DNA of 56,431 nucleotides from an uncultured Candidatus Saccharibacteria bacterium (GCA_964449385.1 CAYUYO010000004.1:1-56431); one strand, 5' to 3'. Shown: positions 1,927 through 18,967, counted from the first letter of the stretch. Notes: generated by a model not told the origin, from the sequence alone. Numbers and translations are program-made.

Positions 1927-1932
1927 ATTTTT

Positions 1933-2433: not shown

Positions 2434-2444
2434 AATTTTATTAA

Positions 2445-2858
2445 TTAATGATTAATTAATAAACCTAATAATAGTCTTTTTCTGTAGAGAAATAGTCGAA
2501 AAGTAAAAACAGATAAGCTAAGACTTATTGTAAAAGCTATCATTCCCGTGAGAGGCAAGGATTCAAGAATGGCTAAACTGAAATCTTGCCAAAGAATAAG
2601 GAAGGTACCGAAATCGCTGAGCGCAGTGGAAACGAAATAAGAAATTCCGGAGCTCTCTATTTGGCTCATAAGTATTGTCAAAGAAAGAGGAACGGTCATA
2701 AAAGAAACAATTAAAATGCTTGCAAAACCAAATACTAATCTCCTTGTGTGTTGTGATTCTTGCTCCCGTTTAATTACCAAGATTATCCGATCAAAAAGAC
2801 CCGCGGGAGGCTCTGCGGGTTTAAGATGCGAGAAAAGTTTTTCGAAATCCTGTCTCAT
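2445..2858 (-). CDS. putative anti-sigma factor / membrane protein
   Basis: 137-aa ORF immediately downstream of the ECF sigma gene. It has a short cytoplasmic N-terminus followed by TM helices (LVFGFASILIVSFMTVPLSLTIL). Confidence 0.45.
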   Translation of the reverse strand: MRQDFEKLFSHLKPAEPPAGLFDRIILVIKREQESQHTRRLVFGFASILIVSFMTVPLSLTILMSQIESSGISYFVSTALSDFGTFLILWQDFSLAILESLPLTGMIAFTISLSLSVFTFRLFLYRKRLLLGLLINH

Positions 2859-2899
2859 AACTCCCTATATACTAATACGACTGAGGGAGCTGTTTTGGT

Positions 2900-3463
2900 T
2901 CACTTCTCCTTTAGGATTTTTCTTAATATTGCAATTCCTCTTCTGTGGCGGGTTTTTATAGTATCAATTGATTCTCCTAAACTCTCGGCTATTTCACGAA
3001 AGGTAAAGTGATCATTATAGCGAAGAAATAAAACCATGCGATATTTAGGAGAAAGTACTTCCAGTGCCTTATTTAAAAAATTAACCACATCTATTCTTTC
3101 TAACATCTGGTTTAGTAAAAGATCTGTGTCGGGTATGTTCTCAACAAAAAATCTATCTTTATTCCTGTATTCTAACTCTGAAAATGGAATAGCTCGCTTT
3201 TTCTTCTGCCAATCAAGACAAGCATTTTTAGCAATAGCAAAAATCCAGGTCTTAAATTTTTTGTTCTTATCAAATTTCTTAAGATTACGCCAGATTTTAA
3301 TAAAAACATCTTGAGTAATATCTTCTACTTCCTGGCCATTCCCAATAAATCTGAAAGTAAAGCTGTAAATAGGCTTTAGATATCGCTTAATTAAAATCTC
3401 CAACGATTCTTCATCGCCTTTTAGATAATTAGTGACTAATTGCTCGTCGGTATAAGTTTTCAT
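2900..3463 (-). CDS. RNA polymerase sigma-70 family ECF sigma factor
   Basis: Region 2 (DITQDVFIKIWRNLKKF) and a region 4 HTH (FREIAESLGESIDTIKTRHRRG). Confidence 0.85.
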   Translation of the reverse strand: MKTYTDEQLVTNYLKGDEESLEILIKRYLKPIYSFTFRFIGNGQEVEDITQDVFIKIWRNLKKFDKNKKFKTWIFAIAKNACLDWQKKKRAIPFSELEYRNKDRFFVENIPDTDLLLNQMLERIDVVNFLNKALEVLSPKYRMVLFLRYNDHFTFREIAESLGESIDTIKTRHRRGIAILRKILKEK

Positions 3464-3599
3464 TCTGAATTTGGTATATCACAAATTAATGCCTGAGACA
3501 ACAACACTCGGAGCCTACCAAAAAAATCGCTTTTTGGCGATTAATTGGTGCAACTCCGTTCCGAACTAGGAGTGTCTCACTGATATGTCTCGGTTGGGG

Positions 3600-4385
3600 C
3601 TATTTTAGATAATCTGATATTATGGAATTTTCCTCCAACGTATTTTTGAAAATCGTGATCGTCACTGGTCCAATATAACCCGGTACTACTTGATATTGCT
3701 GGAAATAGATTGTCAGAGAATTGTAATTGAAATTAAAATTACGGTAATTGTCCAATGTAGGTTGGGTCCCCTGCTGAATCATTTGGGTCAAAACGTCATC
3801 TATCTGTACGCCGCTGGATTGAAGTTGCGAAGTCACCTGCTGAACTGCAATTTGCGACAATTTTTGCAGAGCTTGCGGCGAACTACCCAAAAAATCATCA
3901 ATGGTTATTTCTTTCTTTTGTATAATATCGTAATTAAGAGCGTAAACCTTATTGAATCCGTGCGCTCCACCACTGAAATAATATATATTTATGACAAAAC
4001 TCAAGTATTTGTTGTTAAGCTGGATCGGTTTCCAATCAGCTATGAAGTCAAATGGTTCTTCTGGATTCTCAGACACGGTCTGATCAGGAAGAATTGTAGC
4101 TATTCTCGCATCCCAGTTGTCTTTCACATTTTTCTTGAATGTATCAATCTCTCCCGTAATAAATATTGAGACCTGGTCGTTAAAAGCTACGACAATATCT
4201 CCAAATTGCGGATATTCAACCTGGATATTATAAAAATTATCAGTCTGTGATATTGAACTTATCGACATTTCTAAACCTTTTTCGGCAGAAATTTCTGTGG
4301 AAACTTTTTCGTTTTTTATAAACCAAACTGCCACTGCGGCTAAAATTATCATTATTATTACTATAAATAAATAAGTTTTTTTCAT
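3600..4385 (-). CDS. DUF3298/DUF4163 (RsiV/PdaC-like) exported protein
   Basis: N-terminal signal anchor (YLFIVIIMIILAAVAVWF), a YYFSGGAHG motif and a C-terminal IYFQQYQVVPGYIGP pattern typical of this family. Confidence 0.6.
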   Translation of the reverse strand: MKKTYLFIVIIMIILAAVAVWFIKNEKVSTEISAEKGLEMSISSISQTDNFYNIQVEYPQFGDIVVAFNDQVSIFITGEIDTFKKNVKDNWDARIATILPDQTVSENPEEPFDFIADWKPIQLNNKYLSFVINIYYFSGGAHGFNKVYALNYDIIQKKEITIDDFLGSSPQALQKLSQIAVQQVTSQLQSSGVQIDDVLTQMIQQGTQPTLDNYRNFNFNYNSLTIYFQQYQVVPGYIGPVTITIFKNTLEENSIISDYLK

Positions 4386-4497
4386 AATTTTAGAGATTGA
4401 ATTTATTTTTATATCTTTATCATATTAATTATATCAAAAAAACCGTCTAAAAGAATAAGTGGAAGTTAGCTGTGTGCCCCGGTCTGGAACCAAGGGT

Positions 4498-5223
4498 TTA
4501 AAGGGAAATTAGACGGTTTTTGAGAATGTCTCGTAACGCGTCTCGGTCTGGTCTATTTTTAGATTTTAATACAGAATCCCATTGCGAAGGAATTCTTACG
4601 GATATTTCTTTTTTTTCTTTTGATGTTGCCGTTTGGAATAAAATTGAAGTAGCAGATAGGGCAATACTTTTATTTGGAAGAGCAAAGGGTGCGCCGTATT
4701 TTATGTCGCCTAAAATTGAATGGTCAATTAATGATAGTTGGGCGCGAATTTGGTGGAATCTGCCAGTTTTGATTTTAATTTCCAAAAGAGAGAATTTATT
4801 ATTTGAAGCAAGCACTTTATAGAAAAGCTCTGCTTTTTTACTATCCCCTTTTTTACCTATTGTCGCTCTTTTTTTATTTCTATCTTTTTGAATATAATTT
4901 ATCAATATTTCCTTATTTTTCTTTATTTTTCCCATAACTATAGCGTTATATGTCTTTTCAATCTGATGATTGCGGAATTGCTCAGAAAGGCGCGAAGCAC
5001 CTTTGCTTGTTTTGGCAAATAAAACAATTCCCGAAACCGGCCTGTCAAGACGATGCAATAATCCTAAAAAAACATTACCGGATTTTTGATATTTCTCTTT
5101 TAAATAAGCCTTCACCTCGTCTATTAAACTAATATCGCCCGTTTTGTCTCTTTGGGTTAAAACGCCAGCCGGTTTATAAACCGCTATCAAATGATTATCT
5201 TCGTACAAAATATTAAGCTTCAT
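4498..5223 (-). CDS. RluA-family pseudouridine synthase
   Basis: HRLDRPVSGIVLFAKT (catalytic Asp motif) and GRFHQIRAQL. Confidence 0.85.
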   Translation of the reverse strand: MKLNILYEDNHLIAVYKPAGVLTQRDKTGDISLIDEVKAYLKEKYQKSGNVFLGLLHRLDRPVSGIVLFAKTSKGASRLSEQFRNHQIEKTYNAIVMGKIKKNKEILINYIQKDRNKKRATIGKKGDSKKAELFYKVLASNNKFSLLEIKIKTGRFHQIRAQLSLIDHSILGDIKYGAPFALPNKSIALSATSILFQTATSKEKKEISVRIPSQWDSVLKSKNRPDRDALRDILKNRLISL

Positions 5224-5429
5224 AATATTATGATAACAAAAATCCGAGAAAAACTCTCGGACGAAGGCGACTCAGTTTCTCGATACCGAGTACAAGACTG
5301 CTGCGAGAACTGGAAAACGTTAGAACTTGTTTAATAGCGGATTCACTGGCATTTTCCAGATAATTACACTGATTTCAGTATATCAAAAAGTCTCTTTCTT
5401 GGCGATTGTTTAAGTTTGCATTAAGCTCT

Positions 5430-6401
5430 TTATTTCCAAATCTGGTTAAGATATCTAAGACCAGCTCTTCCCATTCCTAAAAAGTATTCATTTTCAGAAG
5501 ACGAATTATTATTCGCTACTTTCTCATAATTTGCTAAGAGGACGTGCATGGTATGGGCTAACTTCACATACTTGGGAAGCTTCCTAAGTTCGTCAGTTGT
5601 AAGAGAAATATAATTTTGATATTCATTTAAAGCTAAATCGTAAATTTTGGGAAACTCATTAGGATTTTTAGCGTCAAAAAATAAATCGCAGAGAATAACT
5701 GCTAATTCTTGAATTCGAGGGTAATAGTTAGCAACGGCAAAGTCCAAAATATAAATATCGCCATTCGCACTCTTCATGGTATTGGTTTTAGTAATATCTC
5801 CGTGGACAAAACAATGAGGTAAGCCATCAATAGATAAAGAATTATACACCTCGACCATCGGCTCAATAAGCTTTTTATCTTCTCCATTGAGATATTGGCT
5901 TTTCTTCTCATATTCTTTCAAGAAATTCGTTATCGCCCATTGGTCGTATACCATTGAGGGTTTAATACTAATTTTATTGATTAAGGCGGCTTGTTTTATA
6001 ATAAAGCGCTTTTCTTCGATATTTGGAGTAGTTTGAAGTTCATAAAAAATCTTTCCATCAATATATTGCATTACACAGAGCCTGTCTGTTTGGTTATTAT
6101 TTAATAATTCATATAAATATCCTCGGTTTGATTTAAAAAGTGAGGGGTGTGCTACGCCCGCCTTTAAAGCGCTTTCCATTATCCCAACATATCTATTGCA
6201 TTCATCTTTGCTACGAAAAGAACCGAATATTTTAACAAAATACTTGTCTTTGTTTGTTACAACAAATAAATTAAAATCTTCATAGCCAATCGTAACTATT
6301 TCGTGAGTATTATATTCTCCGATGTTAAAATCTCTACAAAGTCGTTGTAAAAATGACTCAAGATCGCCTTGATAATTTATCCTTTTTTGGAAATTATTCA
6401 T
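5430..6401 (-). CDS. aminoglycoside/choline-kinase-like phosphotransferase (APH family)
   Basis: Catalytic loop FVHGDITKTN and Mg-binding ILDFAVANYYPRIQELA. Confidence 0.7.
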   Translation of the reverse strand: MNNFQKRINYQGDLESFLQRLCRDFNIGEYNTHEIVTIGYEDFNLFVVTNKDKYFVKIFGSFRSKDECNRYVGIMESALKAGVAHPSLFKSNRGYLYELLNNNQTDRLCVMQYIDGKIFYELQTTPNIEEKRFIIKQAALINKISIKPSMVYDQWAITNFLKEYEKKSQYLNGEDKKLIEPMVEVYNSLSIDGLPHCFVHGDITKTNTMKSANGDIYILDFAVANYYPRIQELAVILCDLFFDAKNPNEFPKIYDLALNEYQNYISLTTDELRKLPKYVKLAHTMHVLLANYEKVANNNSSSENEYFLGMGRAGLRYLNQIWK

Positions 6402-7574: not shown

Positions 7575-8363
7575 TCACTCGGTGCCCATTAAAATTTCCC
7601 CGCATTTGGATTCGGCAGCTATTGCCAAATCAATTATATCGTCAAGTTCCGGTTCAACACTGGTCAACTCTTCTCCGTTTTTCAGTTTCGCCCCTACCGT
7701 TCTAGCGTGTGTCTGCCAAACGCTTTCCACCTCGCAATTGGCAATCGCTTGTTTAATTGTCAGCCATTCTGGAGTATCTCCCGGGCAAGGAGTAAATTCG
7801 CAATTAGGACCAGTACGGCTAACGTAGGAGCCGTCCGGACAAAGCTTGGCTTCTTGGGTACAGGCTACCTGCCCTAATTCTGATGAAGGGTTGAGTTGCC
7901 AGATAGAATAATTGAGATAACCGGCGAAGCTGACCCAAAGAATATATGGTAAAAGAAGAAGTGCCGCCGGCCGTGAGATTTTATAAAAAACAATAATCGT
8001 CCCAATAATCGCCAGCCAGAGAAAAATAATCTCAATAAATGCCGCTCCGGGGTTACGCAGGCCGAAAAATATAATTGACCAGAGTGTATTCAAGACAAGC
8101 TGACCGATAAATATACAAAGCGCTGTTTTTACTTCTTTTCGTTCAAATCCATGACGCCACACCAAGAACGCCGCCACTCCCATAAGAAAATACAGCGTCG
8201 TCCACGCGGGACCAAAAATCCAATTTGGCGGACTAAAACTCGGCTTTTGAAGCAAGGCATACCAAGTTGGGATTGACGAGACGGTAAACACCGAGCCAAT
8301 CAATCCAGCAAGTTCCGAAACAACAATGGTAATAACTAACTTAAAAAAATTATTAAGCTTCAT
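7575..8363 (-). CDS. tspO: TspO/MBR tryptophan-rich sensory protein fused to a C-terminal Cys-rich soluble domain
   Basis: PSFSPPNWIFGPAWTTLYFLMGVAAFLVW and five TM helices in the first 160 aa or so, followed by a roughly 95-aa extension with 6 Cys. Confidence 0.75.
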   Translation of the reverse strand: MKLNNFFKLVITIVVSELAGLIGSVFTVSSIPTWYALLQKPSFSPPNWIFGPAWTTLYFLMGVAAFLVWRHGFERKEVKTALCIFIGQLVLNTLWSIIFFGLRNPGAAFIEIIFLWLAIIGTIIVFYKISRPAALLLLPYILWVSFAGYLNYSIWQLNPSSELGQVACTQEAKLCPDGSYVSRTGPNCEFTPCPGDTPEWLTIKQAIANCEVESVWQTHARTVGAKLKNGEELTSVEPELDDIIDLAIAAESKCGEILMGTE

Positions 8364-8442
8364 AAGTTTATTTTATCACAATCCACTTAATCTTGCCTCT
8401 CTTCATCCACTAATTGCCCCGTGGCGAAAGATATCGAAGGAA

Positions 8443-9675
8443 TTATCCTCCAGATGCTTGATTAACTAAGGTTAGATTTCCGTCATCATTTCGTATGTAT
8501 TGTTTCGTTTCTAAAAATTCCATTTTATCTTTATCGCCTTCCTCATAATATCCTATAACCTCTTCTTTGCCATCTTCTTCAACTAATTTAATCAATAAAT
8601 CCCCTTTATTATAAACTTCCCAGTTCTTATCTATTCTTCCAAAAATAAGGGCATCGCGTTTTTCGGCCTTTGGCATCGTGTAGATTAAATTATCATCTTT
8701 ATCATAAATTTTTATTTCATCTCGTGCTTGGATGGTATAAATAGTCCAAATCCAAGTTTCGGTAAAATTGAGGCTTCTCCTTTGATTTTTGATTATAACA
8801 TCAACGAGAAAATCATAACAAAAAAGTGCGTTTTCTTTTGTCCAATTCGGCGGGCCCCAATTATGACCATGATTTAATATATATTTCCATTCTTTATTAT
8901 TATTTACACCAACTTTTGCGGTTAAATCCTCGAACTTTCGCATTAAATCTCTATCAATCCCTTTTTCAAGAAAATCAGCTCTATCATACAAATCTGAAAA
9001 CCAACCTCTACCTTGTCCAGGAAAAATATTGCTTGATTCTCTTAATTTTTTATCCTCCTCTGACGGAGGGCTCAAATCGTATCGTGGATTAAGCCTTATT
9101 CGTAATAGTGATTCCTCAAAAACTTTAAATTTAATTATTGCCATTTCGTTTAATGCTTCTTTGTATTTACCTTGCTCAATAAAGTCTTCAACCGTCTTAA
9201 TCTGCGTCTTTATAGAATCATCTTTAATTAAATCGGCAAGACTTATTATCTCCCATTCTAAACCGAAGTAGTGACGAGAGTATTCTTGAAAGAAAGAAAC
9301 AATAGGAGCAATCAATCCCTTTGCATGATTGGTGTTTGGCACGATGCCCTGATGTTTTATATTATTACGAATGGTATTAAGTTGGGCGATCTCGTTTTTG
9401 CTTATTAAAGAAAAACTGGTGTCAGTTTTTCTTTCGTATCCCTCAATTGCATTCAGGGTATCCAACAAATAACTCTTTTGCGTTAAGGAAATGTTCAGTT
9501 GACTTGCTATTGCACCAGTAAAATTATCTAAGGCGTCGTGTAAGGCAATTAAACCCTGCGAGAAATTAAAAGTATCATTTGGCGTATCGCAAAACTGAAT
9601 TGCTTTCTTAAATATAGTTTTCGCCAACACCAATCTATAGACAATATGCGGTTTTAATTGTTGCAAAGTGGACAT
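8443..9675 (-). CDS. hypothetical protein with an N-terminal HEPN-like Rx4H motif
   Basis: 410-aa ORF. A helical N-terminal region of about 140 aa ends in LNTIRNNIKHQG (R-N-x-x-x-H). The rest is unrecognised. Confidence 0.4.
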   Translation of the reverse strand: MSTLQQLKPHIVYRLVLAKTIFKKAIQFCDTPNDTFNFSQGLIALHDALDNFTGAIASQLNISLTQKSYLLDTLNAIEGYERKTDTSFSLISKNEIAQLNTIRNNIKHQGIVPNTNHAKGLIAPIVSFFQEYSRHYFGLEWEIISLADLIKDDSIKTQIKTVEDFIEQGKYKEALNEMAIIKFKVFEESLLRIRLNPRYDLSPPSEEDKKLRESSNIFPGQGRGWFSDLYDRADFLEKGIDRDLMRKFEDLTAKVGVNNNKEWKYILNHGHNWGPPNWTKENALFCYDFLVDVIIKNQRRSLNFTETWIWTIYTIQARDEIKIYDKDDNLIYTMPKAEKRDALIFGRIDKNWEVYNKGDLLIKLVEEDGKEEVIGYYEEGDKDKMEFLETKQYIRNDDGNLTLVNQASGG

Positions 9676-9772
9676 GGTTTTTTTACAATAAGTCCTGATT
9701 TTTTATAAATTTCCGCTAAATGCTTTTGATAAAACTGAATTGAAAAGCTCTTTGAGTTTTGATTTTTTATTC

Positions 9773-10066
9773 CTAATCATTTATCAAATGATAAAATTGC
9801 TCTTTAACTATTTTTGTAATTCTATCAAGTTCTGCTTTGTCTACTTGTTTGAGATCATACTCATCAACAAATTTTACCCACTCATCGTTTCGAAGAGTAA
9901 AAAACCTTATCTCGTCTACCGAATATGGACTTTCGTCAGGCTTTAGCACTTCCATTCTTCCGCCGGCCCAACCTTTATACTTAGGATTCCGAATTATCTC
10001 CTCAACAAACGAAAGTGTGTATCCTTTATCTCTTTCTCTCCTAATTTTTTTTGTTGAATAAGTCAT
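9773..10066 (-). CDS. hypothetical protein (last gene of the 4-gene overlapping operon)
   Basis: 97-aa ORF whose start overlaps the upstream stop by 4 nt. Confidence 0.5.
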   Translation of the reverse strand: MTYSTKKIRRERDKGYTLSFVEEIIRNPKYKGWAGGRMEVLKPDESPYSVDEIRFFTLRNDEWVKFVDEYDLKQVDKAELDRITKIVKEQFYHLIND

Positions 10067-10875
10067 GATAGATTATATTTTTGATATGCTTCAGCAAGTC
10101 TAATATCGTATTTATTTTGAGCATATTCAGAACCATTATACAAACGGGCGAATGTAGCCCAATCCCTATTTTTCAAGGCATTAATCTTTCTCGAATCAGA
10201 ACTGATAAACTTTAAAAATGTCTCAACATGGGCTTCTTGTCCCGCTTTAAGATAATCAACAAATTCCCGTGCCGTATTAAAACCACAAGCTTGATGATTA
10301 AAACCCATAATTTGGAACATGCCATAAGATGCACAATTCCAAGCGCATTCATGGACGTTAAGAGCTTCGGCTAAGCGCGAGTTTTCAGCGTCGCCACCCT
10401 TATAAAGACTACGATTCCATGTGGGAGAAATAAGCGTGGGATACTTTATCATTAAAGCATCGAGGTCTAAGCCAACCTTTTTTAGTTCACGGTAAAATAT
10501 ATGCGCCTCGAATAGAACGGTTAATAAGCCAGTTTTTTGGAAACCAGAACGCCCGCCCGACTCTACTTCGGCAACAGCTAAAACGCTCGCAACATCCAGA
10601 CCATACAAGGAAGCCATTTCAGCAATTCTATTTCTATCTAAGGTTTGATTTTTATTCGGAGCGGGATAAACTTGATCCTGTTTCGGGATTGGCGACTTTT
10701 TTTCTTCAGAGTCTTTTACTGGTTCGGTTTTTATTATCGGCTTCTCATCCTTTGGAAGAATAACGGGGGTCTTTGGTAAGACACTATTCTTCTTTTTATT
10801 CTTAAAAGAAGCAATAAGTTCTAATATAAACCTCTTAAACGCTTCTCCTAATTTTTTTGTTGGCCGCTTAGTCAT
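10063..10875 (-). CDS. N-acetylmuramidase-family (DUF3380) peptidoglycan hydrolase, endolysin-like
   Basis: AVAEVESGGRSGF, FEAHIFYR, GMFQIMGFNH and FARLYNGSEYAQNKYD motifs. A K/P-rich N-terminal linker of about 85 aa has no clear signal peptide. Confidence 0.7.
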   Translation of the reverse strand: MTKRPTKKLGEAFKRFILELIASFKNKKKNSVLPKTPVILPKDEKPIIKTEPVKDSEEKKSPIPKQDQVYPAPNKNQTLDRNRIAEMASLYGLDVASVLAVAEVESGGRSGFQKTGLLTVLFEAHIFYRELKKVGLDLDALMIKYPTLISPTWNRSLYKGGDAENSRLAEALNVHECAWNCASYGMFQIMGFNHQACGFNTAREFVDYLKAGQEAHVETFLKFISSDSRKINALKNRDWATFARLYNGSEYAQNKYDIRLAEAYQKYNLS

Positions 10876-11486
10876 TGTTTTAAATATTTAATAAACTCTA
10901 CCCCAAATTCTGAAATCCAAACAAATGGAGCATTGACGGGCCCCAAACGAGAAGAAGGGTCGCTTAATAAGATCCTTAGATTTATCAAGTTATAAATATT
11001 AACGAGGTGAATGGCTTCGTTACCATAAACCTGATAATTTCTATCCTTTCGCGATACATCAACCTCTCTTAAAACTCTTATATCTTCGGAGCTCATCTGC
11101 GATAAAGTATGAATAAACTTTTCTAATTGAAATGTCGATTTTTGCTCAGTAACTGCATATCCTAAAAATATGTTTCGGAAGTGTTCCCTTTTCTCCTCAT
11201 TCCGCTCGGTTAAATATTTCTCAAGCGCAAAGACAAAACCGTCCTGAAATTCTTCTTGTTGTAAAAGTTTCTGTGTAAAAATTTCAGGGTTATCTCTTAT
11301 CATTTCCACCCATTCAAGAGCCTTTTGCTGTCTTAGTTTTAAGCCGGCACCAAATAAAGCCTTACTTAATCCCCACGCAATGTTCAAAGCGGGTACACTA
11401 GAAACAATCTGATCGGCAACAACCAGTGCGCTCTCTTTAATAATTTGCTTGTCTTTTTTATTCATAACCCTAACTTTATTAGTCAA
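10872..11486 (-). CDS. hypothetical protein with a weak Abi-alpha (DUF4393)-like pattern
   Basis: 204-aa ORF with an N-terminal amphipathic/hydrophobic stretch (SSVPALNIAWGLSKALFGAGL). FRNIFLGYA and LSQMSSEDIRVLREV resemble Abi-alpha conserved blocks. Judged by eye only. Confidence 0.35.
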   Translation of the reverse strand: MTNKVRVMNKKDKQIIKESALVVADQIVSSVPALNIAWGLSKALFGAGLKLRQQKALEWVEMIRDNPEIFTQKLLQQEEFQDGFVFALEKYLTERNEEKREHFRNIFLGYAVTEQKSTFQLEKFIHTLSQMSSEDIRVLREVDVSRKDRNYQVYGNEAIHLVNIYNLINLRILLSDPSSRLGPVNAPFVWISEFGVEFIKYLKQ

Positions 11487-12366
11487 AATTTTGTATTTCT
11501 GGTTTTCTTCTTCCTCCTTTACGTGCGGCGATTTTGGGAACTCCAGGACCGGGCATAATAATTGTTTTAATTTTCGTATTCTTCAGACTTCTCATTAGTT
11601 TTGCCATTGGAATTTTAGTCTCCCTACTTTTTTTCATTAATTCGGCTATTTCATCACCAGAAATAGTTTTACCTGGTATTGCCTCGACAAAAGTTTGAAT
11701 ATTCCATGTTGTCTCTGATTCCTCATTTGTATTAGTCATCGTATCTAAAAGAGTCTCTGGTGGCAATTCATCTATAACCCCTTGCATGCCCATTCCGTGC
11801 GTGTGTATATGTTTGAATTGATCAATTTCGCCCCGTTCAATTGCAAACACCCACATATCGTAATCTGTAAATGGAATATGAAAATCAGAATATTTAATGA
11901 ATGTATTTCCATCTATCCTCATTTGGAAATGATAGTGAGGTTTTCTCCCTCGAATCTTAAAAAAATGTCCAGTAAAATCTCCTTTAGAACATGAAAAAGA
12001 CCACTCAAGGTTTTTATACTTAATGGTTTGCTCAATAACTTTTGATGAGCGTTTTTCTTTAACAAGGTCATTTATATTTTTAAATGGTGCTTCACTATTT
12101 GCTAACCATCTAAAGTAGGGATTAATTCTCCAGTAATCAAATCTACTAAAAACCAAAGGAAAATGTTTTTTATTGAATCCGACAGGTCTTAGTAACCAGT
12201 GTATACAAGGACGATCAACGGAAAAATAATCAAATCTCTGATGACAAAGATAACATTCATCTCTCTTAAGAGCATCTTTAAACCCTTGAAATTCTTCTTC
12301 CGTTTCTTTAATAGTCCTTTCATTCATTTTCGTAATCTGCTGAGGTGTTAATTTGGGAAAATCCAT
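11479..12366 (-). CDS. hypothetical Cys/His-rich protein (first gene of the 4-gene operon)
   Basis: 295-aa ORF with CYLCHQRFDYFSVDRPCIHW, KPHYHFQM and HIHTHGMG. No family recognised. Confidence 0.5.
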   Translation of the reverse strand: MDFPKLTPQQITKMNERTIKETEEEFQGFKDALKRDECYLCHQRFDYFSVDRPCIHWLLRPVGFNKKHFPLVFSRFDYWRINPYFRWLANSEAPFKNINDLVKEKRSSKVIEQTIKYKNLEWSFSCSKGDFTGHFFKIRGRKPHYHFQMRIDGNTFIKYSDFHIPFTDYDMWVFAIERGEIDQFKHIHTHGMGMQGVIDELPPETLLDTMTNTNEESETTWNIQTFVEAIPGKTISGDEIAELMKKSRETKIPMAKLMRSLKNTKIKTIIMPGPGVPKIAARKGGRRKPEIQNFD

Positions 12367-12468
12367 AGTTTATCTTGAATTAACGCTTTTGATTACTTTT
12401 ATATCCTGTTTGATTAAGCCATAAAGTTTATAGCCCCCCTAAGTTATCCACAGTTGACTACTACTCTG

Positions 12469-12490
12469 CGTTCTAAAAACGTTCTATAAT
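12469..12490 (+). promoter_or_regulatory. candidate promoter/operator of the LexA-MTase gene
   Basis: Direct repeat CGTTCT (12469-12474) N5 CGTTCT (12480-12485) running into a perfect TATAAT (12485-12490), 37 nt upstream of the ATG. Confidence 0.4.
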
Positions 12491-12527
12491 AGAATTGTAG
12501 CATGTAAAGCTTACCAGTCAATAACTT

Positions 12528-14087
12528 ATGTTCACAAAAAGGCAAAAACAGATTCTTGATTACATAAAGAAGTTTATAAAAGATAAAGGCTACCCTCCTT
12601 CTTTTGAAGAAATAAGAAGGCATTTTGGATTTGTTTCAAAATCTACCGTTCATCACCACGTAGAAACACTGAAAGAAAAAGGATACCTTAATCACGCACG
12701 AACTATAGAGTTATCTAAAGGTGAAAAATCTTCTGGGCTTGTGGAAATTCCCCTACTCGGCACTATTGCCGCCGGCGAACCGATTGAGGCAATCGAAAAT
12801 AAGGAAACAATTGCAGTGCCAAAATCAAAGTTGCCCAGGAGCGGAGATTCTTATGCCCTACGTGTAGCTGGCGATAGTATGATTGACGAAAATATCAACA
12901 ATGGTGATGTCATTTTAGTAAAACAGCAGAACGTTGCTGAAAATGGTCAAAAAGTTGTCGCACTTATAGATAATCACGAAGCTACGCTAAAGAAGTTTTA
13001 CAAAGAAAAAGGATATATTCGCTTACAACCTGCCAACAAAAATATGGAGCCGATTATCCTACGTAACGGTAGAGATATTTCTATCCAGGGAGTAGTTCTT
13101 GATGTTATTCGTAAGGAAAATCCAACCCTTGCCGTTTTGCCAAAAATAAAAACAACCGAGATTAAGCAATATAGAAAACTCCCACTTAATCAAATTATTG
13201 TGGGAGATGCGATAGAAGAAATGAAAAAGATTCCAGGCAACTCAATAGATATGACATTCGCCGACCCGCCATTCAACCTTAATAAAAAATACGGCAACTA
13301 CAAAGATCAGAAAGCCTCCGAAGATTACATAAAATGGTGCGAACAATGGCTTAACGAGATGGTTAGAATAACTAAACCGAGCGGTTCGATCTTAGTACAT
13401 AACATACCAAAATGGTTAGTATATTTTGCTAACCATCTAAATAAAATTGCTGTATTCAAACATTGGATTGCGTGGGACTCAATGGGAGCTCCGCTCGGTA
13501 AAACTTTACTTCCCTCCCATTATGGAATTTTATTCTATACAAAAACTCCAAAAGGTTTTAAATTCCATGAACTTAGATCGCCGCATAAAAAATGTCGGGT
13601 TTGTGGGGAAATGATAAAAGACTACGGTGGGAAAAAAAGCCAAATCAATCCTTATGGAACTCTTTTAAGCGATGTTTGGACAGATATACATCGCATTAGA
13701 CACAATACACGCAGAGATGCTCACCCCTGCCAGCTTCCTGAACCGCTGCTTGAACGTTTAATACTAATGACGACAAACGAGAATGATGTAGTTTTAGATC
13801 CCTTTATAGGCGCTGGCACAACCGCATTAGCTGCAAAGCGACTTGGTCGGAACTATATTGGTATAGACATAGACCTGAAGTATAAAAAAATAGTTAGCGA
13901 CAAAATTAGAAAAGTAAATTATCGATCAAGTAATGGCTATAAATACAATAACGATGCCCCGGCTGTGGCATCGAAATATCTGAGAAATCTGACTATATCG
14001 GAAGATGAGGAAATCTATCCTATTGATAATCCTCAATTTAAATCCGATGACAAACGACGCAAGAATGTTACCCTTTCTCTGTTTTAG
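12528..14087 (+). CDS. complete LexA (wHTH + S24 peptidase) fused in frame to a beta-class N6A/N4C DNA methyltransferase
   Basis: The LexA head is RQKQILDYIKKFIKDKGYPPSFEEIRRHFGFVSKSTVHHHVETLKEKGYL. The cleavage loop is GTIAAGEPIEA, the catalytic Ser is in VAGDSM and the catalytic Lys in EATLKKF. MTase motif IV (FADPPFNL) precedes motif I (LDPFIGAGTTALAA). Confidence 0.85.
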   Translation: MFTKRQKQILDYIKKFIKDKGYPPSFEEIRRHFGFVSKSTVHHHVETLKEKGYLNHARTIELSKGEKSSGLVEIPLLGTIAAGEPIEAIENKETIAVPKSKLPRSGDSYALRVAGDSMIDENINNGDVILVKQQNVAENGQKVVALIDNHEATLKKFYKEKGYIRLQPANKNMEPIILRNGRDISIQGVVLDVIRKENPTLAVLPKIKTTEIKQYRKLPLNQIIVGDAIEEMKKIPGNSIDMTFADPPFNLNKKYGNYKDQKASEDYIKWCEQWLNEMVRITKPSGSILVHNIPKWLVYFANHLNKIAVFKHWIAWDSMGAPLGKTLLPSHYGILFYTKTPKGFKFHELRSPHKKCRVCGEMIKDYGGKKSQINPYGTLLSDVWTDIHRIRHNTRRDAHPCQLPEPLLERLILMTTNENDVVLDPFIGAGTTALAAKRLGRNYIGIDIDLKYKKIVSDKIRKVNYRSSNGYKYNNDAPAVASKYLRNLTISEDEEIYPIDNPQFKSDDKRRKNVTLSLF

Positions 14088-14823
14088 CGTCTTGAGCTTC
14101 TTTTATAATCTTCCTGTGTTTTTTAATAATTCTCTTTGATCTATAAACAATAGTTTTTCTGAACAATTGCTCAAATTGTTCCAATGTTTTTATTGGCGGA
14201 TCAATATCAAAATCCTTAGGCCTGAGATTCCCATCTTTTTCTCGATACTTAAGCAGTTTAGCTTTGTTAAGTCCCAAAAAGTTATAAAAGGGGGCTACCT
14301 CTATATTCTGAACTTCTTTTGTTTTTTCATTAAAATTGTAAATAACAAAAATATAGTAAATATTTCTCCCGTCAAATTTTCTAATTCTGTTAGGCCACTC
14401 ATTAAGAGTTCCCATATCGTTCTCGCTATTTTTCACAGCCACCCATTTGCCTTGCCTATTCTGACTCCTATTACCAGATTTAAACTCAATAGCAATAGGT
14501 GGCGCTGTCTTTAATTCGAAATCGGGGAAGTAATTTTTATGCGGCGCAATAGCATAATCTCTGTCGTTTTTGATAAAATCAGTTTTCTTAAAAATATCAA
14601 CGATAATATCGGTCAGGTATTCCTCAATAGCTGTGCCAAAAGTACGGTAATTGAAATCACCGGCACCAACAACCCGCTTTAAATCATCTAAAATCTTCTT
14701 TCTTGAGGAAATCAAAACCTTAATTGCCGCAGTACCATTTTTATTTTTTGCTTGTTTTTGAGGCATGTTTATTAAAATCACAATTCGTACTTTTAGGATA
14801 GCACTTAGAATGGGAAATGACAA
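14068..14823 (-). CDS. putative type II restriction endonuclease (PD-(D/E)xK)
   Basis: YFPDFELKTAPPIAIEFKSG fits PD...ExK. The gene is convergent with the MTase gene and overlaps it by 20 nt. The start is uncertain (14823 or the internal ATG at 14766). Confidence 0.55.
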   Translation of the reverse strand: MSFPILSAILKVRIVILINMPQKQAKNKNGTAAIKVLISSRKKILDDLKRVVGAGDFNYRTFGTAIEEYLTDIIVDIFKKTDFIKNDRDYAIAPHKNYFPDFELKTAPPIAIEFKSGNRSQNRQGKWVAVKNSENDMGTLNEWPNRIRKFDGRNIYYIFVIYNFNEKTKEVQNIEVAPFYNFLGLNKAKLLKYREKDGNLRPKDFDIDPPIKTLEQFEQLFRKTIVYRSKRIIKKHRKIIKEAQDAKTEKG

Positions 14824-14871: not shown

Positions 14872-15549
14872 ATGAAAATTACAATGAGCCTACCAAAAAC
14901 AATTTTAGATATTGTTAAAGTCATCCACGACAAGTTAGAAATTGTTCCAGAAAAAGATAAGGTACTTACGATTTCTTTATGGGATTTCAAGGACGAAAAC
15001 GGAGATGCTATTCCTAAAATGAACTTGAAAAATGGGTTAAGGAAATTAGCGGAAGATAATAAACTTATCCAATTAAGAGATATTAAATGTCTTGATAGAT
15101 TAGGAAGATTTGCCGGTGAGAGAATAGAGCTTGAAATTAATCGGGAAGCATTTTCAAAAATAAGTAAGTTAACGGAGAAAAGCATTAAAAAGAAAATCAA
15201 ACACGTTGCCTTAGACCCAAAATCTTATTCTTTAATAATTAACCATCAAGATTATGTGCCGTTTAGGTCAAAAAGGCATAAACAGGATTTAGAAGCAGAA
15301 ACAAAACAATTCAAAATCCTATATCATCTCTGGGAATTTAGAAAAGAAATAAAAAACGGGAAAGTAAGCCAGAAAATAGATTCTGATTTTGCATCCCTTT
15401 CCAATATCGCAAGAGGAGCTGAATGCACCGAAGAGGCATCCAGGCAACATATAAAAAGGCTTAGACAAAGATTTAAGAAAGAAAAGCTACCCATAGACAT
15501 TGAGCCAAGCGGAACTGGACTATATCAGTTGGTGATTGAATTAGAATAA
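14872..15549 (+). CDS. DNA-binding protein with a C-terminal OmpR/PhoB-type winged helix
   Basis: The C-terminus (EEASRQHIKRLRQRFKKEKLPIDIEPSGTGLYQLV) matches the Trans_reg_C pattern. Confidence 0.5.
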   Translation: MKITMSLPKTILDIVKVIHDKLEIVPEKDKVLTISLWDFKDENGDAIPKMNLKNGLRKLAEDNKLIQLRDIKCLDRLGRFAGERIELEINREAFSKISKLTEKSIKKKIKHVALDPKSYSLIINHQDYVPFRSKRHKQDLEAETKQFKILYHLWEFRKEIKNGKVSQKIDSDFASLSNIARGAECTEEASRQHIKRLRQRFKKEKLPIDIEPSGTGLYQLVIELE

Positions 15550-15719
15550 TCTCAATAAGTCTATTTCTGGACTATTTCTTGGTCGCCTTATCATAAGGTG
15601 GCTTTTTTATTTACGCATATTTTCAAGTCCCAATTGGTCATATGCTCCAAAATGACCAAATTTAGCTAGTGATTCGGCTGTTAAAATTAAATAAAAAGTA
15701 AATAAAATCATCAATTATT

Positions 15720-15959
15720 ATGAACCAAAATGAATTTTCAAGTTTTGATCTGGGATTGGCGACGGTGCTGATAACGCTGGCTTACGAGCTGCTCGAACTA
15801 GACAGATCTATGCCCAAAAAGGTTAGGTTTGTTTTCAGACGGGAGAAAAACATTGAGGGAGTAATGGCTGATTACTTTAATGACAAAATAAAACTGCCGG
15901 CCCAAACCTTATTCAATAACCAGAAAAATCTTAAATCACGCCTTTATTGTGGTGCGTGA
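15720..15959 (+). CDS. DUF5659-like small protein
   Basis: FSSFDLGLATVLITLAYELLELDRSMPKKVRFVFRRE matches the family pattern as I recall it. Confidence 0.45.
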   Translation: MNQNEFSSFDLGLATVLITLAYELLELDRSMPKKVRFVFRREKNIEGVMADYFNDKIKLPAQTLFNNQKNLKSRLYCGA

Positions 15960-15969
15960 TTTTTATTTT

Positions 15970-16179
15970 ATGTTGCCAGAAGCCGCAATTATTCAATTCA
16001 AAAAAATCTGGAAAAAGCTTTATGGAATTGAACTTAGCGATAAAGAAGCCGTTTTTCGGGCAAATAATTTGGTTGCTTTATATCGTGCGGTTTACGGAAA
16101 TCGGCAAGATATTCAAAACAATAAACAAATAAATTCTAATCATGCTGGAGAAAATAACATTCAAACAGAAAATAAATAA
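15970..16179 (+). CDS. small hypothetical protein (LYRAVY family; paralog of 6407..6589)
   Basis: Internal ATG of ORF 15949..16179. FKKIWKKLYGIELSDKEAVFRANNLVALYRAVY aligns with the 6407..6589 product. Confidence 0.5.
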   Translation: MLPEAAIIQFKKIWKKLYGIELSDKEAVFRANNLVALYRAVYGNRQDIQNNKQINSNHAGENNIQTENK

Positions 16180-16804
16180 GGATTGTGAAGGAAGTTTTGA
16201 AATAAGAGATTTGAGAGAAAAAGACAGATTTGTCGTGGACGACAAATTCCTGAACGGCTATGCCAGATTTCTGGGAGTTTATGCTGTCGGCGTTTACAAC
16301 TCACTCTGCCGGCACGCAAATAAAGAGCAAAAATGCTGGCCGTCCATTAAAAAGATAGTGCAGGAACTATCAATCGGCAGAAACAAAGTATTCGACAGCA
16401 TCAAGTATCTTGAATTTTGGCAGATCATCAAAAAGGAAAGGTTGGGCAAAAAACTAACAAACAGATATTTATTGCTAAGTAAACGCTATTGGAAACCCAT
16501 AAGTGAAGGTTCTCTCAAGGACTTCAGTGAAGTTTACCACATAAACTTCAAGAGTTTGCTGGATAAACTTCACGAGTTTACCTCATCAACTTCCATAGTA
16601 AGGAAACAAAATAGTAATTTATTAAAAAAGAAAGGAGATCTTTCTTTTAAAGAATTAGCCGACGCTTACAAAAAAGGAGAAAGAAAATGTAAGCCCTTCT
16701 TTTGGGGAGACGAAATGAGATGGTCTCAAAACAAATGGTGGGTTATTAAAAACGGTGAATGGCTTAAATTTGACGGAAATGAATCGGAAATAGAGTGGAG
16801 ATGA
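16142..16804 (+). CDS. winged-helix DNA-binding protein, replication-initiator/DnaD-like
   Basis: CWPSIKKIVQELSIGRNKVFDSIKYLEFWQIIKKER is a typical wHTH of plasmid/phage Rep-like proteins. Iteron-like repeats follow the gene. Confidence 0.45.
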   Translation: MLEKITFKQKINKDCEGSFEIRDLREKDRFVVDDKFLNGYARFLGVYAVGVYNSLCRHANKEQKCWPSIKKIVQELSIGRNKVFDSIKYLEFWQIIKKERLGKKLTNRYLLLSKRYWKPISEGSLKDFSEVYHINFKSLLDKLHEFTSSTSIVRKQNSNLLKKKGDLSFKELADAYKKGERKCKPFFWGDEMRWSQNKWWVIKNGEWLKFDGNESEIEWR

Positions 16805-16823
16805 ACCTGCCTCTTAAAACGCC

Positions 16824-16851
16824 TTGTATGAGTTGTATGAGCCTGTATGAC
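16824..16851. repeat. iteron-like tandem repeats TTGTATGAG TTGTATGAG CCTGTATGAC
   Basis: Three tandem 9-10 bp units read directly, 20 nt after the rep-like gene stop. Confidence 0.6.
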
Positions 16852-16920
16852 GATTTTCAAGCAAAAGGTAGAGATTTATACCGCCTACAAACATCTAACA
16901 CTTCTAACAATATATAATAT

Positions 16921-17211
16921 ATGGCGCAAGGTAAAAAAGTAACAGAAAAACAATGGAACGAATTTCTAAAAGTCCTCGGGGAGACGCTCGGTTTAATCGG
17001 AGCTACTTGTAGAAAAGTAGGGATTAGCCGCTGGACTTATTATGACCACCGATCAAAAGATAAAGAATTTGCTAAAAAAGCAGATCTAACCATAATGCAA
17101 ACGGGCGTAGCTTTTGCTGCGGATAAATTGCTCGAAGCAGTATCTCAAGGTGAGGGCTGGGCAATAAAATTTTTTTTAATGTGTAAAAGTAAGGAATGGC
17201 GGCCATACTAA
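16921..17211 (+). CDS. small HTH protein (terminase-small-subunit/excisionase-like)
   Basis: CRKVGISRWTYYDHRSKDKEFAKK HTH, with position immediately upstream of the recombinase gene. Confidence 0.4.
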   Translation: MAQGKKVTEKQWNEFLKVLGETLGLIGATCRKVGISRWTYYDHRSKDKEFAKKADLTIMQTGVAFAADKLLEAVSQGEGWAIKFFLMCKSKEWRPY

Positions 17212-17318
17212 GTTGTCCACTTGACTTCTTTTCTGGGTAGCACATTGTTTGTATTGAGCTGACGCTCCAGCCCTAAAAATGGCTCAGGTGGAGCGTCACC
17301 CGAGCCATTTTCAATAAC

Positions 17319-18956
17319 ATGAGCATGAACCAACAAGAAAAAATTAAATACTTGGTCTACTGCCGAAAATCTTCGGAACAAGAAGATAGGCAGGTACTAT
17401 CTATTGAATCTCAAAGAAACGAACTGGAAAGAATCATTGAAAACGAAGGATTAAAAGTTGTTGAGACATTGGAAGAATCTCATTCGGCAAAAAAGCCAGG
17501 CCGCCCTATCTTTGATAATCTTCTTGAAAAAATTGAAAAAGGAATCGCTAACGGACTCTTAGTTTGGAACGCAAATAGAATATCAAGAAATCCAATAGAT
17601 ACTGGCAGGATTGTTTATTTAATGGATGAAGGAAAACTGCTGGAAGTGAAGACGCCGGGCCAAGCATTTCGTAATACGCCCAACGATAAATTCTTACTCA
17701 ATCTCTTTTGTAGCCAGGCAAAATTGGAAAACGATAATAAAGGCGAAGATGTAAAACGTGGGCTGAAAACAAAAGCGGAAAAAGGAATGTATCCGGCGCC
17801 AGCTCCAACAGGATATATAAACGAAAAATATGCAGACAGGGGCAGCAAAAGAATACTGCCCGATCCTGAAAGGTTTGATCTGGTCAGAAAAATGTTTGAT
17901 ATGATGCTTAAAGGAATTCACTCGCCACTTCAAATTCTCAGAGCGGCTAATGACGAATGGGGTTTAAAAATGCCCAATGGTAAGAAAATGGGCAGAAGCA
18001 CTATCTATAACCTTTTTACCAATCCCGTTTATTACGGGATGTTTGAATATCCAAAACATAGTGGACTCTGGTATAAAGGCACTCACAAGCCAATGATAAC
18101 AGCTGAAGAATACGACCGAATTCAGTTCTTGCTCGGTAGAAAAGGGCGCCAGCGTCCTAAAACGCACGTCTTCGCCTTTACAGGACTTATACGATGCGCT
18201 GAGTGTGGTTGCATGGTTACGGCTGAAGAAAAGATAAAGAAACAGAAAAACGGCAACGTTCACCGATATATCTATTACCATTGCACCAAAAGGAAAAACC
18301 CGAACTGCACTCAAAAATGCATAGAGCAAAATGAATTGGAAAAACAAATCAAAGCCGCAATTGAAACAATCAGCATTCCGCCAGTGCTTCACGACTTTGC
18401 TCTGGAGTGGCTCAAAAAAGAAAACCAAAAAGAGTCGCATACCACAAACGTCGTGCTTGATACACAAGAAAAGAAATATAAAGACTGCCTGAAGAAATTA
18501 GCAGGTTTGATTGATATGAGGGCAGCTGGCGAAATAGATGAGGAAGAATTCAAATCAAGAAAACTTCCGCTAACTGCCGAGAAAAAGCGCTGGGAGCAGG
18601 TATTTACCAAAACCAGCCAGAGAGTGGATCAATGGCTAGATAAAGCTGACGAGATATTAGATTTCGCCCGAGATGCCAAAATAAGCTTCGAAAATGGCGA
18701 ACCCGACAATAAAAAAGAGATACTCTCCCGTTTAGGTTCGAACCTCCTGTTAAAAGACAAAATAATCGTAATTAACACCCAAAACACGCTGATTCCCATT
18801 CAGGCGCTTTCAACCGAAGATAAGCGGTTAGAACCTCTCAAAATAGGCAAAAATACGAAGGAGATAATGGAACTTTACTCAAAAAGTCCACGAATGCTGC
18901 GGGGCAAGGATTCGAACCTCGATCGATTGGACCAAAACCAACTGTCCTACCATTAG
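17319..18956 (+). CDS. large serine recombinase
   Basis: Resolvase-type N-domain (YCRKSSEQEDRQVLSIESQ, WNANRISRN), a recombinase domain, a zinc ribbon (CAECGCMV...YYHCTKRKNPNC) and a coiled-coil tail. The last 19 codons plus the stop lie antisense inside tRNA-Gln. Confidence 0.85.
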   Translation: MSMNQQEKIKYLVYCRKSSEQEDRQVLSIESQRNELERIIENEGLKVVETLEESHSAKKPGRPIFDNLLEKIEKGIANGLLVWNANRISRNPIDTGRIVYLMDEGKLLEVKTPGQAFRNTPNDKFLLNLFCSQAKLENDNKGEDVKRGLKTKAEKGMYPAPAPTGYINEKYADRGSKRILPDPERFDLVRKMFDMMLKGIHSPLQILRAANDEWGLKMPNGKKMGRSTIYNLFTNPVYYGMFEYPKHSGLWYKGTHKPMITAEEYDRIQFLLGRKGRQRPKTHVFAFTGLIRCAECGCMVTAEEKIKKQKNGNVHRYIYYHCTKRKNPNCTQKCIEQNELEKQIKAAIETISIPPVLHDFALEWLKKENQKESHTTNVVLDTQEKKYKDCLKKLAGLIDMRAAGEIDEEEFKSRKLPLTAEKKRWEQVFTKTSQRVDQWLDKADEILDFARDAKISFENGEPDNKKEILSRLGSNLLLKDKIIVINTQNTLIPIQALSTEDKRLEPLKIGKNTKEIMELYSKSPRMLRGKDSNLDRLDQNQLSYH

Positions 18957-18967
18957 ACGACCCCGCA
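18897..18967 (-). tRNA. tRNA-Gln (anticodon UUG)
   Basis: Manual cloverleaf: acceptor TGCGGGG/CCCCGCA, D stem GTCT/GGAC, anticodon stem GTTGG/CCAAT with loop TTTTGGT, T arm CGAGG-TTCGAAT-CCTTG. No CCA is encoded. Confidence 0.9.

Follow-up and report, generated by a model that had tools for sequence, protein, structure and literature searches.

Four genes on the minus strand occupy positions 9773–12366 of a 56,431-nucleotide (nt) stretch of DNA (hereafter the window, meaning the whole stretch analysed) from an uncultured Candidatus Saccharibacteria bacterium (GCA_964449385.1 CAYUYO010000004.1:1-56431). The four open reading frames (ORFs) described in an initial annotation, which was made from the sequence alone, are all present, and separate gene calling on 24 contigs from the same population in lake water recovers the same four genes. 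In the direction of transcription, gene 1 (11479–12366, 295 amino acids (aa)) has a CCCH zinc site, a PHYHFQM motif, and a helical, basic C-terminus; gene 2 (10872–11465, 197 aa from its ATG start) is helical with a winged-helix-like C-terminal part; gene 3 (10063–10875, 270 aa) combines an amphipathic N-terminal helix and a K/P-rich linker with a DUF3380 N-acetylmuramidase domain; and gene 4 (9773–10066, 97 aa) encodes a small conserved protein of the island family. We lean towards reading them as stacked and separately exchangeable cargo genes of defence type, arranged in an operon of a small island that integrates and probably also replicates. The region would then be the cargo-bearing arm of a ~10.5-kb integrative island in a lake-water genome of the Patescibacteria (candidate phyla radiation, CPR).

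The gene boundaries differ in one place from those first proposed, which had the genes overlapping by 8, 4, and 4 nt. Genes 2 and 3 as well as genes 3 and 4 do share 4-nt ATGA stop/start overlaps, but the 8-nt overlap between genes 1 and 2 is an artefact, because the longest ORF had been taken, from TTG 11486. No ribosome-binding site precedes this TTG, and all homologues begin with MN(K/E)KDK. According to gene callers and homologues, the actual start is ATG 11465, so that gene 2 encodes 197 instead of 204 aa and lies 13 nt beyond gene 1 (stop codon TAA, 11479–11481).

A single operon had also been proposed. One transcription unit is plausible because the best promoter-like site points into gene 1 from the 161-bp intergenic region upstream, but the unit is probably longer and comprises five genes. 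This site (TTGACT-16 nt-TG-n-TACAAT; 12494–12521, minus strand) has 10 of 12 matches and an extended -10 box and is the top-scoring one in 8300–12700; it is a consensus match only. The fifth gene (8443–9675, minus strand) encodes 410 aa with an Rx4H (RNNIKH) HEPN-like motif and follows gene 4 on the same strand after a 97-nt gap that contains no terminator-like site. Judged from these signals, the unit probably extends through the 410-aa gene to a terminator-like hairpin just past it (8435–8452, minus strand), identified by a consensus scan that found five sites where 2.5 were expected. A single promoter would then drive genes 1–4 and probably the HEPN-like gene. A search of RNA runs found none that contains this region.

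Exchange of cargo between related islands

The composition of the operon is mosaic. Positions 10845–12800 of the window are 95.8% identical at the nucleotide level to the nearest sister island, L015, and this matching stretch consists of 30 nt of the gene after gene 2, gene 2, gene 1, the whole intergenic region, and the helix-turn-helix (HTH) part of a divergently transcribed LexA-methyltransferase gene. The promoter-like site lies within a stretch that is 97% identical to L015, whereas the remainder of the LexA-methyltransferase shares only 44% protein identity. Downstream of gene 2, genes 3 and 4 are replaced in L015 by unrelated genes for a 183-aa, a 203-aa, an SLFN_AlbA_2, and a 234-aa protein. 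The genes that follow gene 2 nevertheless share their first ~30 nt (MTKRPTKKLG in the window, 10845–10875; MINRPTKKLG in L015, 6222–6252), and the junction of a cargo-swap recombination event is therefore placed just inside the downstream ORF. A second locus, L013, has only gene 2 in common with the window, at 87% nucleotide identity from the gene 1 stop to 16 nt beyond the gene 2 stop. A sediment metagenome (X12) contains gene 2, gene 1, and the LexA N-terminus but lacks genes 3 and 4. In further sister islands, the cargo between the LexA/restriction–modification (R-M) genes and gene 4/TspO includes a 1249-aa protein, an SNase, and an SLFN_AlbA_2 protein. Genes 1 and 2 may thus constitute a 2-kb block that moves jointly with the promoter and with the DNA-binding part of LexA, with the gene 3 muramidase swapped in ~30 nt past the gene 2 stop and gene 4 belonging to the island backbone.

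These data bear directly on the proposal that the four genes form one dedicated cassette, for instance a four-component abortive-infection or self-lysis system with a sensor, an adaptor, a muramidase effector, and a regulator. The compact co-directional arrangement with ATGA overlaps and the defence-island setting would fit such a system, as would a groundwater metagenome (X13) that contains genes 1–3 and, judging from read depth, apparently gene 4 at 90%–95% nucleotide identity. X13 belongs to the same lineage, however, and the quartet was found only within this lineage (at least 90% nucleotide identity), while L015 and X12 hold genes 1 and 2 without genes 3 and 4. Genes 1, 3, and 4 are absent from all 29 loci containing gene 2 in representative genomes; genes 2–4 are absent from seven distinct contexts of gene 1 and from 13 prophage contigs that carry it; and neither the gene 4 loci nor the relatives of gene 3 repeat the quartet. 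The initial annotation had itself named a lack of co-occurrence elsewhere as the observation that would speak against the cassette, and since this is what we found, a dedicated four-gene lysis system is very unlikely.

Gene families of the operon

No family could be named for gene 1 initially, and our searches leave it that way: there was no Pfam, NCBIfam, or PADLOC match at E ≤ 1, PHROGs yielded two chance-level matches only (E ~0.07), and a profile search of the PDB and Pfam scans of 30 family members were empty. The AlphaFold2 model, computed with the alignment (pLDDT (predicted local distance difference test) score 90, pTM (predicted template modelling) score 0.85), had no match at E < 0.1 in a Foldseek search against the PDB and BFVD, and sequence and profile searches of the PDB with genes 1 and 2 returned chance-level matches only (MoaB, NDC80, Csn2). 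The family splits into 659 clusters at 90% and 398 at 50% identity; the architecture of ~300 aa is constant across the 398, none of which includes a fusion. Invariant features are C38, C41, C54, and H56, which make up the CCCH site, the NIND motif, E104, K109, P143-HYHFQM, H163, and D170, and the conserved C-terminus is helical with a basic tail at its end. Gene 1 may encode a DNA-binding protein or enzyme that depends on a metal. An assignment as HUH endonuclease or transposase, suggested by PHYHFQM, was rejected owing to the lack of a structural match, of flanking inverted repeats, and of fusions in the 398 clusters; cupin and PD-(D/E)xK folds were rejected as well, because the spacing of the motifs is incompatible with them and no fold match was obtained.

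Homologues of gene 1 occur in varied mobile and defence-related surroundings. In L001, the gene follows a type III-like R-M system and precedes an HSDR_N_2 gene with which it overlaps by 8 nt; in L004-7 (Gottesmanbacteria), it sits by itself at the border of a serine-recombinase island; in L008, a Nitrospirae metagenome-assembled genome, it lies alone between two tyrosine integrases, beside an OLD-TOPRIM and a UvrD gene (Gabija-like); and in L228, it neighbours AIPR and an MmeI-like enzyme. No match was found among cultured phages and plasmids. Thirteen IMG/VR contigs (L209-L221; GC content 48%–61%) carry solitary copies with 34%–39% identity, usually on the strand opposite to their neighbours. 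In the five IMG/VR loci whose neighbours were scanned, the gene adjoins either the integrase or the final tail/baseplate gene, which is the classical position of a moron, and no inverted repeats surround the solitary copies. Gene 1 is thus an independent gene of mobile elements that has been transferred widely.

The family of gene 2 numbers at least 348 clusters at 90% identity, of which nearly all carry a Patescibacteria label, with identities of 55%–90%. Its AlphaFold2 model (pLDDT 79.5) is all-helical, and the last ~80 residues resemble MarR-type winged helices, although the corresponding weak Foldseek matches (E 0.5) are not significant (E > 0.2). The resemblance to Abi-alpha/DUF4393 that had been pointed out initially holds as a weak match and hence as a lead, but not as family membership, the score being 16.1 bits against a cut-off of 29; Abi_alpha matches were obtained for only 4 of 27 family members (best E 0.011). 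In PADLOC-DB v2, gene 2 matched AbiEi only (E 0.0077, 13.7 bits), short of membership, and none of genes 1–4 belongs to a known system in this database. The PHROG holin match of gene 2 had an E value of 0.35, and the gene was not found in cultured phages, plasmids, or IMG/VR.

The surroundings of gene 2 were scanned using one genome per species, which resulted in 29 loci, 27 of them usable for spacing. In 20 of the 27 loci, the end of a same-strand gene falls within -8 to +26 nt of the gene 2 start, and a tightly spaced gene follows gene 2 in about 12. The upstream genes include PifA (6e-90), a cyclase (5e-177) of the cyclic oligonucleotide-based antiphage signalling system (CBASS), Mrr_cat (twice), HEPN (twice), a type I HsdR, a type IIG fragment, a helicase-MTES_1575 nuclease, and several unknowns, while HsdS/HsdM, DUF2726, a caspase-like protease with a prokaryotic Argonaute (pAgo), and GmrSD/AbiEii/XhoI are encoded downstream or nearby. 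In L032 (4656–6624), the homologue comes directly after the CBASS oligonucleotide cyclase (PADLOC, 5e-177), in the usual effector slot; this contig ends 70 nt past the homologue, and the remaining operon lies outside it. Judging from these neighbourhoods, gene 2 is a gene associated with defence operons, which may cooperate with the gene preceding it or may simply stack behind it. The initially proposed defence context is thereby upheld, as the families of both gene 1 and gene 2 repeatedly occur beside known defence genes.

Shared hot-spots of mobile genetic elements (MGEs) could also explain this proximity if gene 1, gene 2, or both served element maintenance or counter-defence, for example as anti-restriction proteins, regulators, or addiction genes. 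Solitary copies of gene 1 at prophage ends and beside integrases would suit such a role, as would the winged-helix-like C-terminus of gene 2, its far higher conservation compared to its partners, and the movement of the block of genes 1 and 2 together with the repressor HTH and the promoter. Regulators such as BrxR or CapW sit upstream in defence operons, however, whereas gene 2 directly follows effectors; its structural matches stay below significance, and no known anti-defence family was matched in any library. We therefore regard this explanation as rather improbable.

The annotation of gene 3 as a DUF3380 N-acetylmuramidase with a K/P-rich linker is well founded, PF11860 being matched over its full length (profile positions 1–175 of 175, E 3e-56, 190.7 bits vs. 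a cut-off of 22.3). Its PHROGs matches are endolysin families, and it matches PDB entries 7RUM (2.5e-45) and 5NM7 (1.8e-40). In the endolysin AP3gp15, Glu101 within the EVES motif is the single catalytic glutamate (PMC5674055). E105 of gene 3 (AVAEVESGG) aligns with this E101 (VNEVESKG), so the catalytic glutamate is kept, and gene 3 is a genuine member of the DUF3380 muramidases, with predicted activity. Phage endolysins of this family, such as Burkholderia phage AP3 gp15 (5NM7), 7RUM, and those of Salmonella phages, share the full catalytic domain with it at 40%–50% identity, the similarity being restricted to this domain. In contrast to them, gene 3 carries an amphipathic helix and a K/P-rich linker (the N-terminal 75 residues) in place of an N-terminal PG_binding_1 domain and is located outside a holin–endolysin cassette and outside a phage genome.

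The reported lack of a transmembrane (TM) helix and signal peptide was confirmed, as no TM-grade stretch (Kyte-Doolittle) was detected in the N-terminus and no export signal was found; the hydropathy peak of gene 3 (1.53) falls at residues 84–102, inside the catalytic domain rather than in the N-terminus. The highest 19-residue means of genes 1, 2, and 4 are 0.42, 1.37, and -0.16, respectively. It had also been noted that no phage structural genes or recognisable holin accompany the muramidase, and Pfam and PHROGs scans agree: no capsid, tail, terminase, packaging, or holin family was detected in 8.4–19 kb. The features of a holin plus endolysin cassette, namely an adjacent TM protein, a signal-arrest-release (SAR) or signal sequence, and structural or packaging genes, are thus lacking here. 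The four genes may be a remnant of a lysis cassette.

As Patescibacteria are often epibionts, the muramidase might instead be aimed at the cell wall of a host bacterium, with its neighbours acting as chaperones or export helpers. Such a function would agree with the DUF3380 family degrading Gram-negative-type peptidoglycan (PMC5674055). The initial suggestion of an episymbiont effector finds no support in our data, however, since an export signal is missing, and it appears highly improbable: there is neither a signal peptide or TM segment nor a secretion-system gene nearby, gene 3 is part of a strain-variable island and is replaced in L015, and its neighbours occur in defence rather than secretion contexts.

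Close relatives of gene 3 were found on only two metagenome contigs, L129 and L130, which are Patescibacteria-like and carry these genes (60%–70% identity) beside LexA-type repressors. L129 (60% identity over the full length) encodes a LexA-methyltransferase fusion, a 113-aa gene, the muramidase, and a 226-aa, weakly Abi_alpha-like protein (E 0.0016). L130 (70% identity in the catalytic domain) contains a LexA-like repressor, a muramidase fusion, a patatin, and a SMODS/AGS_C cyclase (CBASS). The genes of L130 at 1199–5691 share one strand, and the muramidase is a 493-aa hydrolase consisting of Peptidase_M15_4, PG_binding_1, and DUF3380 domains. A literature search returned nothing specific on muramidase cassettes in Patescibacteria.

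Gene 4 has 35 relatives with 62%–94% identity, which occur in long (137–159 aa) and short (~90 aa) forms. In L045, it follows a LexA-D12-methyltransferase fusion and the 1249-aa protein, and in L047, it lies directly opposite LexA together with a HinfI-type R-M system; in both, TspO is located within two or three genes past it. Gene 4 consequently belongs to the backbone of the island family and not to the muramidase. A sub-cut-off match to Pfam Recombinase (E 0.004) raised the possibility of a fragment of the island's serine recombinase, which was dismissed because BLASTP against this recombinase gave an E value of 0.73. The 410-aa protein matches phrog_37995 (6e-9), and its N-terminus resembles a gene of the pAgo/caspase island L013 (27% identity, 1e-8); no match was obtained in cultured phages. 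It is probably a further defence gene of the transcription unit.

Possible regulation and function

Divergently from gene 1, the window encodes a LexA protein with an HTH and a self-cleaving S24 domain fused to an N6/N4 DNA methyltransferase (12528–14087, plus strand; Pfam LexA_DNA_bind, Peptidase_S24, N6_N4_Mtase). Both parts expected of a LexA/S24 repressor are present in the N-terminal two-thirds of this protein (PF01726 at 1e-18, PF00717 at 7e-31), and the self-cleavage motifs are intact in the translation: IAAGEP with the AG cleavage site, GDSM with the serine, and ATLKKF with the lysine. Their counterparts in Escherichia coli LexA are the A84–G85 cleavage site and the S119/K156 dyad. The fusion recurs in L015 (3143–4570), L045 (519–2057), and L129 (491–1951) and involves two methyltransferase classes, N6_N4 and D12; in L047 and L130, LexA is adjacent but unfused. 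Our literature search found no description of LexA-methyltransferase fusions. An HTH heading a methyltransferase gene and a divergent palindromic promoter are reminiscent of R-M systems controlled by C-proteins or by methyltransferases with an N-terminal HTH and of CI/LexA-type S24 prophage repressors, but here a complete LexA (HTH plus S24) shares one chain with the methyltransferase, and two methyltransferase classes are involved.

A perfect palindrome, TTCTATAATAGAA (12482–12494), abuts the -10 box of the promoter-like site and is a candidate operator for the LexA-type HTH. It has 6-nt arms and is the sole perfect match within the 56-kb window, and TTCTAT/ATAGAA half-sites are also present in the LexA/cargo intergenic region of L045. 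The classical LexA box (GAAC-N4-GTTC) is absent from the 161-bp intergenic region, which contains the TTCTATAATAGAA palindrome only. The same region includes a DnaA-box-like 9-mer, TTATCCACA(G) (12444–12452, plus strand; sequence match). The 10-mer TTATCCACAG occurs once in each of the LexA/cargo intergenic regions of L045 (~2123–2132) and L047 (~5970–5979), so that this perfect DnaA-box 9-mer is found in the corresponding region of three different islands; the whole window holds three copies of TTATCCACA vs. 0.5 expected.

This arrangement forms the basis of the main rival explanation, in which the operon serves the element itself, a defective prophage or phage-satellite-like replicon, as a lysis or escape module triggered by the SOS response: cleavage of the repressor would allow gene 3 to lyse the cell, and genes 1, 2, and 4 would be early or lysis-accessory proteins. 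Several observations agree with it, including the intact LexA/CI-type S24 repressor transcribed away from the operon, the palindrome next to the operon promoter, the serine integrase and O-like replication gene with iterons in the backbone, the endolysin-type nature of gene 3, and the presence of a LexA-type repressor within a few genes of gene 3 and its close relatives in all three cases (the window, L129, and L130). Others disagree: the island encodes neither a holin or TM protein nor any capsid, tail, or packaging functions, searches of cultured phages and plasmids recovered neither gene 1 nor gene 2, gene 2 is likewise missing from IMG/VR, and the replication and recombination genes are located on the repressor strand, outside the divergent operon. 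Moreover, sister islands with the same backbone hold non-lytic cargo in the slot, and lysis is therefore not part of the conserved life cycle of the element. We consider this explanation unlikely.

In the reading that we favour, of exchangeable defence cargo, genes 1 and 2 would be anti-phage (or anti-MGE) genes, and the LexA-type repressor would silence the operon as long as neither DNA damage nor infection induces it to cleave itself. Gene 2 would be Abi-alpha-like and act with or beside the gene preceding it. It could release or time the activity of the cytoplasmic muramidase, resulting in early lysis of the infected cell and thus in abortive infection. Such joint action of genes 2 and 3 in premature lysis is a tentative and rather doubtful extension, prompted by the Abi-alpha phenotype, the pair of a muramidase and an Abi_alpha-like neighbour in L129, and the lack of a holin. 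Abi-alpha (DUF4393/PF14337; EF2833 from prophage 6 of Enterococcus faecalis V583) is a one-gene abortive infection system, and its action leads to premature lysis (PMC6356687). Like Abi-alpha, gene 2 encodes a helical protein of ~200 aa with a weak Pfam match on a mobile element among defence genes; gene 2 and, in L129, a different weakly Abi_alpha-like gene adjoin a cell-wall hydrolase, an arrangement that would be compatible with a lysis phenotype. Unlike gene 2, with its sub-cut-off score, Abi-alpha comprises 272 aa and acts alone. A bolder proposal, to which we assign a low probability, is that gene 2 is an accessory module (a trigger, membrane-acting executioner, or regulator) common to unrelated Patescibacteria defence systems, coupled in translation to the preceding PifA, CBASS cyclase, Mrr, HEPN, type I HsdR, or gene 1 frame and here paired with the muramidase for lysis, and that gene 1 is a zinc-binding single-gene defence protein with a new fold, distributed across phyla by prophages and islands.

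Several points weigh against the favoured reading or parts of it. We infer the defence role of genes 1 and 2 by guilt by association, and no PADLOC model is matched. One gene 1 homologue (L229) stands alone among housekeeping genes, between mraZ/rsmH and tgt/clpB, and the identity within the gene 2 family is unusually high for a defence gene. The Abi_alpha (PF14337) match of gene 2 below the cut-off covers profile positions 42–92 only, and hhalign assigned a probability of 13.6% to the alignment of gene 2 with the Abi_alpha-like neighbour in L129. None of genes 1–4 encodes a holin or TM protein that would let the muramidase reach the wall. Binding of LexA to an operator is predicted from the palindrome alone. 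Furthermore, genes are normally tightly spaced in the compact genomes of Patescibacteria, so coupling need not mean partnership. Finally, no convincing direct repeats (att sites) flank the island, and the left boundary given for it is provisional.

Defence hot-spots on mobile elements, such as prophage moron loci, P2/P4-type elements, and satellites resembling phage-inducible chromosomal islands (PICIs), are already known. The island shares with them a constant backbone of integrase, replication, and repressor genes with a variable slot, which holds R-M, HEPN, nuclease, SLFN, and Abi-like genes and has its break-points at gene edges. It differs in its Patescibacteria host, the large serine recombinase, a repressor that consists of LexA fused to an R-M methyltransferase, and two undescribed cargo families (genes 1 and 2). 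No capsid-hijacking or packaging genes like those of PICI-like satellites were recognised in the island, and hence satellite status is not claimed. New are the Patescibacteria setting, the two uncharacterised families, and the recurrent LexA-methyltransferase fusion. If the favoured reading is true, the tiny genomes of Patescibacteria keep swappable defence hot-spots like those of well-studied bacteria, the families of gene 1, with its many divergent clusters and no known fold, and gene 2 are good candidates for new anti-phage functions, and the unusual LexA-methyltransferase fusion ties the expression of R-M and cargo genes to DNA damage.

Island backbone and flanking genes

The R-M module continues with a 251-aa gene (14068–14823, minus strand) that is convergent with and overlaps the methyltransferase. 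It is a probable restriction endonuclease by position only, and library scans including PADLOC found no family match. Family scans of the backbone (14872–18967, plus strand) identified, besides a 225-aa gene, a DUF5659 gene, an O-like HTH_36 gene, a 96-aa HTH gene, and a large serine recombinase; of these, the 225-aa gene and the DUF5659 gene are also found in L015 and L021. The HTH_36 gene (16142–16804, plus strand) contains three tandem 22-bp iterons (AGTTTACCACATAAACTTCAAG-like; 16531–16596), a layout of iterons within an initiator gene that resembles lambda O with its internal origin and suggests that the island is able to replicate.

The ORF of the serine recombinase (17319–18967) ends 61 nt inside a tRNA-Gln gene (18896–18967, minus strand), the likely integration site, with dnaX beyond it. 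The gene calls of JGI leave out this recombinase on two contigs. With the R-M module, the HEPN-like gene, and the serine recombinase by tRNA-Gln all in place, the mobile defence-island context described in the initial annotation is corroborated. An integrase at a tRNA gene, flanking core genes, and cargo that differs between sister loci characterise the locus as an integrative island, which extends from roughly 8.4 to 18.97 kb. Possible excision or deletion joints in metagenome contigs were treated as unreliable, as one side covers only 20–24 nt.

TspO and YceG are located on the left side of the island. TspO adjoins the island end in all three genomes (the window, L045, and L047) and could be part of the element or a marker of the insertion region. 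The TspO/MBR protein of the window (7575–8363, minus strand) has 262 aa, including a Cys-rich C-terminal extension of ~100 aa, whereas the 158-aa TspO genes beside the sister islands L045 and L047 are without this Cys-rich extension.

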